A DNA stretch of 32,000 bases from contig NC_017448.1 in the NCBI RefSeq assembly GCF_000146505.1, positions 3,630,001 to 3,662,000 of the forward strand, read 5' to 3'. Each line of letters begins with the position of its first letter. Within the stretch, counting starts at the first letter, position 1. The notes under the pieces are model-generated. The model was not told where the DNA came from. It searched no databases and saw nothing but the letters and a program-made list of their open reading frames with translations. The stretch is from Fibrobacter succinogenes subsp. succinogenes S85. GTDB taxonomy: Bacteria; Fibrobacterota; Fibrobacteria; Fibrobacterales; Fibrobacteraceae. Both the position numbers and the translations under genes were made by a program. Positions 24,289 through 24,671 of the stretch are shown piece by piece.

Positions 24289-24327
24289 GTGTCATCCTGA
24301 GCGGAATGTAATGGAGTCGAAGGATCT
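24289..24327 (+). repeat. GTCAT...ATCT element, long form; left inverted repeat bracketing the GIY-YIG gene
   Basis: GTGTCATCCTGAGCGgaatgtaatggaGTCGAAGGATCT. It ends 12 nt before the GIY-YIG ATG. Confidence 0.8.
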
Positions 24328-24339
24328 ATAATTTTAAGT

Positions 24340-24630
24340 ATGCCAAATAGTTATTATACATATATGATGACAAATCAAAGTAATACAACTCTTTATGTAG
24401 GTGTTACAAATGATATAAGTCGCCGCGCTTTAGAGCATATTGAAGGTTGTGGAGCTACTTTTACTTCAAGATATAAGATTAATAAGTTGATTTACTTTGA
24501 ACGATATACGGAAATTACAGATGCAATAAAACGTGAAAAACAGTTGAAAGGCTGGCGACGAGAGAAAAAGGAGATCCTCATTATGCAGATGAATCCTTTA
24601 TGGAAGGATCTTTTGCAGGATGACTCTTAG
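24340..24630 (+). CDS. Small standalone GIY-YIG nuclease superfamily protein (COG2827/UPF0213-like)
   Basis: YYTYMMTNQSNTTLYVGVTNDISRRALEH...KLIYFERYTEITDAIKREKQLKGWRREKK: GIY/YVG motifs plus the conserved R, E and K-x-W-x-R-x-K tail. Confidence 0.85.
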   Translation: MPNSYYTYMMTNQSNTTLYVGVTNDISRRALEHIEGCGATFTSRYKINKLIYFERYTEITDAIKREKQLKGWRREKKEILIMQMNPLWKDLLQDDS

Positions 24631-24671
24631 ATTCTTCGACTACGGGCTACGCCCTTCGCTCAGAATGACAC
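24629..24671 (-). repeat. GTCAT...ATCT element, long form; right inverted repeat bracketing the GIY-YIG gene
   Basis: The minus strand reads GTGTCATTCTGAGCGaagggcgtagcccgtaGTCGAAGAATCT. It overlaps the GIY-YIG stop codon by 2 nt. The basal stem ATTCT/AGAAT vs ATCCT/AGGAT in the left copy is a compensatory pair change. Confidence 0.8.

Follow-up and report, generated by a model that had tools for sequence, protein, structure and literature searches.

A gene assigned to the Ssn family of single-domain GIY-YIG nucleases was found at 24340-24630 (+ strand; 96 aa) in a stretch of 32,000 nucleotides from contig NC_017448.1 of Fibrobacter succinogenes subsp. succinogenes S85 (hereafter the window), where it lies between two inverted copies of a hairpin-type repeat. 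Judging from sequence comparison, the locus very probably has the SRM-ssn-SRM make-up described for that family, and the gene is predicted to specify a site-specific endonuclease of ssDNA and to lie between the motifs that this enzyme recognises. The flanks carry the conserved 5' (T/C)GTCAT tag and 3' ATC(T/C) tail of the family, and the same bracket is present beside orthologs at other chromosomal sites and beside homologs across phyla. The Fibrobacter locus is an uncharacterised member of a system already published in 2025, and the sequence-only reading of this DNA independently rediscovered a real feature that was already known. The gene-repeat association, the enzymology of the homologs and the REP/IS analogy are known from that work; the long form of the repeat and the mobility comparisons reported here are modest additions.

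Ssn proteins comprise a family of ~94-aa single-domain GIY-YIG nucleases (CDD cd10448, GIY-YIG_unchar_3), the genes of which are flanked by oriented hairpin repeats, named NTS in Neisseria (CGTCATTCCCGCGMAVGCGGGAATCYRG) and SRM generally (Chenal et al. 2025, Nat Commun 16:2388, PMC11893778). With a degenerate motif and copies counted within 500 bp on either side, at least one SRM was recorded near 71% of the Ssn homologs and SRMs on both sides of 42%, and 81% of the genomes with more than 200 SRMs encode an Ssn homolog (Chenal et al. 2025). Enzymes from N. meningitidis (SsnA), two other Neisseria species and Wolbachia have been purified. All four bind their own repeat solely as ssDNA and cut it a few nt upstream, 5' of the CGTCAT tag, with no activity on dsDNA, RNA or the reverse strand, and the Y6A, Y17A and E64A mutants of SsnA are inactive (Chenal et al. 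2025). Cleavage is set by the three bases before the palindrome and binding by the C after it (the published geometry gives a 20-nt product and G26 and C49 as critical bases), and the NTS loop can be replaced or split with cleavage kept (Chenal et al. 2025). The role of these standalone proteins, called essentially unknown in the sequence-only reading, is therefore no longer so. With the Ssn/SRM pairing, endonucleases that are both site-specific and confined to ssDNA became known for the first time, and a class of hairpin repeats that is very widespread in bacteria found its explanation. An earlier survey had described "CGTC-tagged REPs", including Neisseria dRS3 and Rickettsia RPE-4/6, in which the tag is sometimes TGTC, the stem has 8-9 bp and opens with AT, and the loop measures 4-5 nt; dimers were also described, and a dedicated transposase was reported to be lacking (Di Nocera et al. 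2013, BMC Genomics 14:522, PMC3733652).

The nuclease gene and its long-form flanks

The protein encoded at 24340-24630 matches PF01541 (E=2e-15, residues 5-77). GIY-YIG is the sole domain found in it, with no HUH/Y1 (IS200-like) transposase, and its length of 96 aa is inside the Ssn size class (~94 aa, <150 aa). An AF2 model (pLDDT 89.6) shows one compact domain with the GIY-YIG fold, for which the best Foldseek matches were UPF0213 BH0048, Slx1 and UvrC-N; these are also the nearest solved structures, no structure being deposited for Ssn, and NCBIfam holds no model specific to it. UPF0213 proteins (YhbQ, BH0048, EF2693) and Slx1 share the fold (1zg2 at E=2e-9 by profile, Slx1 by Foldseek) but form separate subfamilies, and we know of no repeat association for either. 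Slx1 requires Slx4 and cuts branched dsDNA.

As a reference for SsnA we used the N. gonorrhoeae ortholog (L235:1489-1773) and not the query CAX49033.1 of Chenal et al. This ORF was obtained from PLSDB by tblastn (E=3e-14) and was accepted as SsnA because it has 94 aa, carries Y6/Y17/E64 and lies amid an NTS cluster. It comes from one of two N. gonorrhoeae records that are entered in PLSDB as plasmids but, at 2.17 Mb, are chromosome-sized (L235 is NZ_CP119140.1, 1880787-1884050). For Chenal et al. (2025), a homolog is a protein that blastp aligns with Neisseria SsnA at E<1e-10 over at least 75% coverage; against the N. gonorrhoeae ortholog, S85 Ssn showed 42% identity at E=1e-23 with 88 of 94 residues aligned, which is inside these limits. 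The catalytic Y6/Y17/E64 of SsnA correspond in the alignment to Y8/Y19/E66 of S85 Ssn, with the same spacing, and in an alignment of 35 homologs Y19, H33, E66 and N85 were invariant and Y8 and R29 at least 90% conserved. The identical protein was found in S85 (CP001792.1, around 3.2 Mb) and in many other F. succinogenes contigs.

The left flank is a long-form SRM at 24289-24327 (+ strand, GTGTCATCCTGAGCGGAATGTAATGGAGTCGAAGGATCT), separated by 12 nt from the start codon of the gene (ATG at 24340). It has a TGTC tag facing away from the gene, the basal stem ATCCT/AGGAT, a degenerate inner mini-hairpin and a 3' CT. The right flank, at 24629-24671 on the - strand (GTGTCATTCTGAGCGAAGGGCGTAGCCCGTAGTCGAAGAATCT), is inverted relative to the left one and has the basal stem ATTCT/AGAAT and the inner hairpin GGGC-GTA-GCCC; the stop codon of the gene (TAG, 24628-24630) is overlapped by the ATCT of this arm. 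The arrangement is thus exactly that described from the letters alone, including the gap before the ATG and the overlap with the stop codon. Both arms fit the inverted frame GTGTCAT...GAAGRATCT, in which blocks of 15 nt and 14 nt score as inverted repeats, each 93% complementary, and the left arm is identical in at least nine other F. succinogenes contigs. Long-form elements have a length of 39-43 nt; above a basal stem of 5 bp they have an internal loop rich in purines and then a small inner hairpin of variable sequence, and the consensus of the flanks is GTCATYCTGAGCG-[variable]-GTCGAAGRAYC.

The two arms differ by one compensatory base pair (C/G vs T/A), a point already made in the sequence-only reading, and this covariation extends to the whole class. 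Among 171 distinct long-form elements from all DNA fetched, the basal pair was C..G in 161, T..A in 10 and discordant in none, and the informative set is roughly 36/10/0 because about 120 of the C..G elements had been preselected by the search pattern. Position -1 was T in 87% of the 171 elements, and position +1 was a pyrimidine (T/C). For the 28 distinct elements collected before the metagenomes were added, the variable core usually comprises R-A, a self-complementary mini-hairpin and G-N-A, the mini-hairpins being unrelated in sequence, freely covarying and often provided with a GNA loop. Folded as DNA, the arms have nearest-neighbour energies of -0.9 kcal/mol on the left (z=+1.1) and -4.0 kcal/mol on the right (z=-0.3), and long forms generally fold no better than shuffles; short forms reach z ~ -4. 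Two motifs of these elements, the GA/GA steps that adjoin the basal stem and the GCGNAGC cores, are known to be unusually stable as DNA, and the energy model gives them no credit. By calculated energy the two flanks are not stable hairpins, which corrects the sequence-only reading. A basal stem carrying a variable insert agrees with the replaceable, splittable loop of the NTS.

Long-form pattern scanning of JGI metagenomes (120 contigs) recovered 124 solo copies, 5 copies that adjoin an ssn ORF and 25 near a contig end. With solo and gene-adjacent copies at a ratio of ~25:1, the long form is itself a dispersed family; within the window, its members are the two flanks only. The long-form SRM class was missed by the published search motif and is a modest addition to the work of Chenal et al. 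The occurrence of a Fibrobacterota member with such flanks suggests that the published both-sides figure of 42% is an underestimate.

Several minor features were recorded near the gene or in relation to its repeats. At 24592-24611, the codons of the conserved C-terminal N-P-L-W-K-D-L (AATCCTTTATGGAAGGATCT) form an ATCCT/AGGAT-CT hairpin that recalls the basal stem and tail of the flanking SRM but is without the GTC tag, and which may be a mere by-product of codon choice. About 100 nt upstream of ssn in L023, L026 and L054, tandem 5' half-elements (GTCATYYCRAGC plus a spacer of 8-10 nt) are followed by one complete element. A 785-aa ORF at 7277-9634 has repetitive coding with many near-copies of AGCGAAGAATCT / GTTGAAGAATCC, and these repeats are the source of spurious matches to the 3' block of the element.

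Short SRMs, a second paralog and homologs across phyla

The published SRM motif was matched twice in the window (0.06 matches expected from shuffles), at neither flank of ssn. Both matches are solo short SRMs of NTS-like form, namely TGTCATCCCCGCGAAGGCGGGGATCTCC at 6958-6985 on the + strand (perfect hairpin at 6959-6983; -9.7 kcal/mol, z=-4.3) and CGTCATTCTCGCAAAAGCGAGAATCTGG at 19759-19786 on the - strand (perfect hairpin at 19761-19785; -8.0 kcal/mol, z=-3.9), so that short solos fold at -8 to -9.7 kcal/mol with z about -4. A third solo short SRM lies at 24967-24993 (- strand) between the HTH gene and pmbA, with an 8-bp stem and a 6-nt loop. The three share the frame GTC-AT...AT-CT and account for three of the ~9 perfect hairpins in the window with a stem of at least 8 bp. 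Four solo sites had been reported in the sequence-only reading; three clear copies were recovered, and no fourth convincing one was found in the window. That reading took the solos for short and long relatives with the same GTCAT/ATCT frame. The short solos are NTS-like and fall into another SRM class than the flanks, and a single family of short solos and long flanks served by the window gene is unproven. The three solos resemble the CGTC-tagged REPs in their CGTC/TGTC tag, 8-bp stem starting with AT, loop of 4-6 nt and short tail, whereas the long-form flanks are outside the four families of Di Nocera et al. (2013), a paper in which no dedicated enzyme is given.

A second ssn paralog, ~50% identical to S85 Ssn, was identified in Fibrobacter MAGs (L090, L095 and L097). 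On either side of it lie NTS-like SRMs of the short form, which the published motif does recognise and which resemble the solos of the window. In S85, a search for this short-flank paralog gave no match on any contig >1 Mb. Two SRM classes are possibly served by two enzymes, and such distinct, modular recognition elements suggest testable enzyme/site pairs.

As a positive control, the published motif gave 9 matches around Neisseria ssnA. In the loci of the closest homologs of the window gene it was matched in only 3 of 68, and the substrate specificity of this subfamily is therefore an extrapolation. SRMs on both sides by the published motif are typical of Ssn but not defining, since the paper itself has them in 42% of the homologs only. 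The Fibrobacter unit thus resembles the Neisseria one in its oriented hairpins with a (C/T)GTCAT 5' tag and an ATC(Y) 3' tail and in the dispersal of solo copies in intergenic DNA, and differs from it in having flanks of the long form, outside the published motif. The orientation of the flanks differs as well: the nearest NTS copies at N. gonorrhoeae ssnA (L235) have CGTC tags that face the gene, opposite to the outward tags of the Fibrobacter unit, so the direction in which the flanks point is not constant within the family.

The association was considered in 77 homolog loci drawn from more than 12 phyla. A GTCAY tag in gene-ward orientation was present on both sides of 49 of the 77 (64%), compared with a background of 26%, and TGTCAT was the commonest flank 6-mer across phyla. 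A strict hairpin detector (GTC, a perfect stem of at least 5 bp and C) recovered both flanks in 33 of 76 loci only; because it misses bulged stems and mis-set ORF starts, the tag and k-mer counts were used in its place. Alignment of upstream against downstream sequence revealed inverted repeats in 54 of 75 loci, and many loci also have long direct repeats produced by dimer arrays; a strict rule of one arm per side does not apply. The association of gene and hairpin is real and extremely general.

Genomic contexts and strain polymorphism

Orthologs of the window Ssn (63-100% identity) occur in five genomic contexts in Fibrobacter. The S85 gene (100%) lies between AlgX and HTH-PmbA, and the others are located between RNase R and RgpF (P0019, 73% to the window Ssn), between an NTP-transferase and SpoU (P0003, 82%), between a GDSL lipase and MBOAT (P0014, 74%) and directly downstream of a TraG/TrwB-type T4SS coupling protein (P0032, 63%; L114:175-3315). 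The first four have long-form arms, GTGTCAT...ATGACAC, at matching distances from the gene (in P0019, P0003 and P0014 likewise inverted), and the fifth has none. Synteny of AlgX-HTH-PmbA extends across the genus; between AlgX and HTH, five other lineages have a spacer of only 10-157 bp that contains no ssn.

Solo copies vary between strains, as the sequence-only reading had led one to look for. The short SRM after the HTH gene (24967-24993) is present in S85, L002, L003 and L006 and absent from L004, L005 and L007, where the absence is an indel of roughly 42-48 nt and the Ssn protein is identical. A solo long form is present in L002 (L002:1764-1803); the L003 copy is without 14 nt of the inner mini-hairpin, and the orthologous site of S85 (window 9635-9752) has unrelated or decayed sequence instead. 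In Azospirillum lipoferum 4B, plasmid AZO_p3 (L236, 254906-256384) carries an ssn homolog within the suf operon, where it separates sufB from sufC and has a [+ -] SRM dimer on each side, the two dimers being direct copies. A tblastn search of 50,697 phage records gave no homolog.

Among the features of an autonomous IS, inverted ends, a flanked unit in four contexts and empty sites were observed. No target duplication and no conserved flank or target was visible in the ortholog loci or in the comparison of the 171 elements, and the empty AlgX-HTH sites do not define exact insertion ends, the intergenic DNA being too diverged. The relocated units, empty sites and polymorphic solos provide material on whether Ssn moves repeats.

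At 15000-22500 the window has a low GC content (0.33-0.39) and contains four genes with FGE-sulfatase domains and two PDDEXK_2 genes, a gene content unlike that just upstream of the ssn unit in strains L002 and L003.

Predicted activity and possible roles

The biochemistry of the four purified homologs allows the activity of S85 Ssn to be predicted. When the DNA becomes single-stranded during replication, repair, conjugation or uptake, each arm would fold; Ssn would bind the stem and the C that follows it and would hydrolyse the strand a few nt 5' of the GTC tag, and would leave dsDNA, RNA and the complementary strand intact. With the geometry of the Neisseria enzyme (5 nt 5' of the G of the tag), should it apply, the predicted cuts are 24285/24286 (top strand) and 24675/24674 (bottom strand), each a short way beyond the outer end of its arm. 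The cognate substrate may be the long-form class that flanks the gene, and site-specific nicking of ssDNA may affect recombination, repeat spread or both, two steps that we put forward with less confidence. That the protein is a processing enzyme of the hairpin family, as proposed in the sequence-only reading, is thus supported by homology to enzymes tested in vitro.

What such an enzyme would do for the cell or for itself is less clear-cut. One reading, plausible though short of probable, is that Ssn is a domesticated host nuclease that restricts or trims incoming or exposed ssDNA at SRMs and thereby modulates recombination, as in Neisseria, the flanks being part of the genome-wide SRM population or serving to autoregulate the gene. 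Knockout of ssnA in N. meningitidis raised transformation 5-fold, for NTS-bearing DNA only (Chenal et al. 2025). Many strains of F. succinogenes have a single ssn with the same sequence in a syntenic position, and the ortholog P0032, which adjoins the T4SS coupling protein, is in a conjugative context, where ssDNA is transferred. A domesticated role leaves unexplained, however, that the gene travels with both arms to new loci, and with the two flanks as the only long forms in the window, there is little nearby target population.

Relocation with both arms is what would be expected of a selfish, REPtron-like unit of ~390 bp, a possible but doubtful reading in which solo SRMs are non-autonomous derivatives and cuts by Ssn at the tagged ends start copying or movement. 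The orthologs in five contexts, four of them with conserved GTGTCAT...ATGACAC ends, argue for it, as do the emptiness of the syntenic AlgX-HTH-PmbA site in five other lineages, the Azospirillum module inserted between sufB and sufC, the gain or loss of solo copies between strains, the ~25:1 excess of solo over gene-adjacent long forms in metagenomes and the position of the predicted cuts just outside both arms; the CGTC-tagged REPs, moreover, had been reported without a transposase (Di Nocera et al. 2013). The layout of a nuclease gene between inverted copies of a dispersed hairpin repeat is indeed that of REP/RAYT and IS200/IS605 TnpA systems, as the sequence-only reading had recognised and as Chenal et al. 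(2025) had already discussed in likening NTS-ssnA-NTS to an insertion sequence and drawing the IS200/REP/BIME parallel. The systems also have in common recognition of the hairpin as ssDNA, cutting beside the tagged end and the lack of target duplication. They differ in that the tag is TGTC/CGTC here and not GTAG as in REP/RAYT, and in that Ssn is a GIY-YIG hydrolase and not an HUH/Y1 transesterase, with no covalent intermediate or known joining step. Since hydrolysis proceeds without a covalent intermediate, GIY-YIG enzymes cannot join strands, and to our knowledge no strand-transfer chemistry is available to such a hydrolase. With inverted arms, in addition, one cut falls on each strand, and excision of a single strand would not result. 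No target duplication or conserved target accompanies the unit, filled and empty sites are too diverged to give exact ends, and the gene, which encodes an identical protein across F. succinogenes strains, is apparently fixed and looks vertically inherited.

Enzyme-driven mobilisation, which the sequence-only reading put forward by analogy with REP elements, is hypothetical. The more specific proposal that the ~390-bp SRM-ssn-SRM unit is a mobile element, in which a hydrolytic GIY-YIG ssDNA nickase works with host replication or repair and solo SRMs, short and long, are its non-autonomous progeny, is tentative and in our judgement rather unlikely. If true, this reading would supply the missing enzyme for the orphan CGTC-tagged REP superfamily and would represent a new mechanistic class of bacterial transposition. 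Domestication and selfish spread are not mutually exclusive.

A homing-type spread, in which nicked SRM dimers are repaired by copying the gene in with SRMs as short homology arms, is improbable. GIY-YIG homing endonucleases are an established precedent for it. Gene-free SRM dimers are common (for example in L123, L127 and L142) and were also described by Di Nocera et al. (2013), and the gene is located between two direct [+ -] dimer copies in L044, L055 and L085 (direct-repeat scores >100) as well as in Azospirillum. The homology arms would, however, be only 25-45 nt long with left and right copies that differ, no pair of filled and empty dimers was found, and the characterised enzymes act on ssDNA and make no double-strand breaks (Chenal et al. 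2025).

The idea that the hairpins are ordinary terminators or mRNA stabilisers adjoining the nuclease gene by coincidence draws on the intergenic position of the solos near gene 3' ends and on the T-rich stretch that follows the copy at 6959-6983, but it is very improbable, and the association seen across phyla in effect already refutes it. Conservation of tag and orientation extends over phyla, and the link to the gene, known from the literature, was reproduced here. In addition, the scan showed no terminator-like site at either arm, Rfam gave no match, and the Neisseria enzyme does not bind RNA (Chenal et al. 2025). An RNA element was likewise dropped as a candidate (Rfam at E<=1 on 24000-25100, no match). 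The XRE/HigA-like gene downstream was considered as a toxin-antitoxin partner and discarded, since other species have it in synteny but lack ssn there. The search for terminators and promoters at the arms returned nothing but a weak sigma-70-like match, not above shuffles, at 24665-24693 (ATGACA-N17-AATTAT), in which the outer ATGACA of the right arm is followed by 17 nt and AATTAT and which faces the downstream HTH gene.
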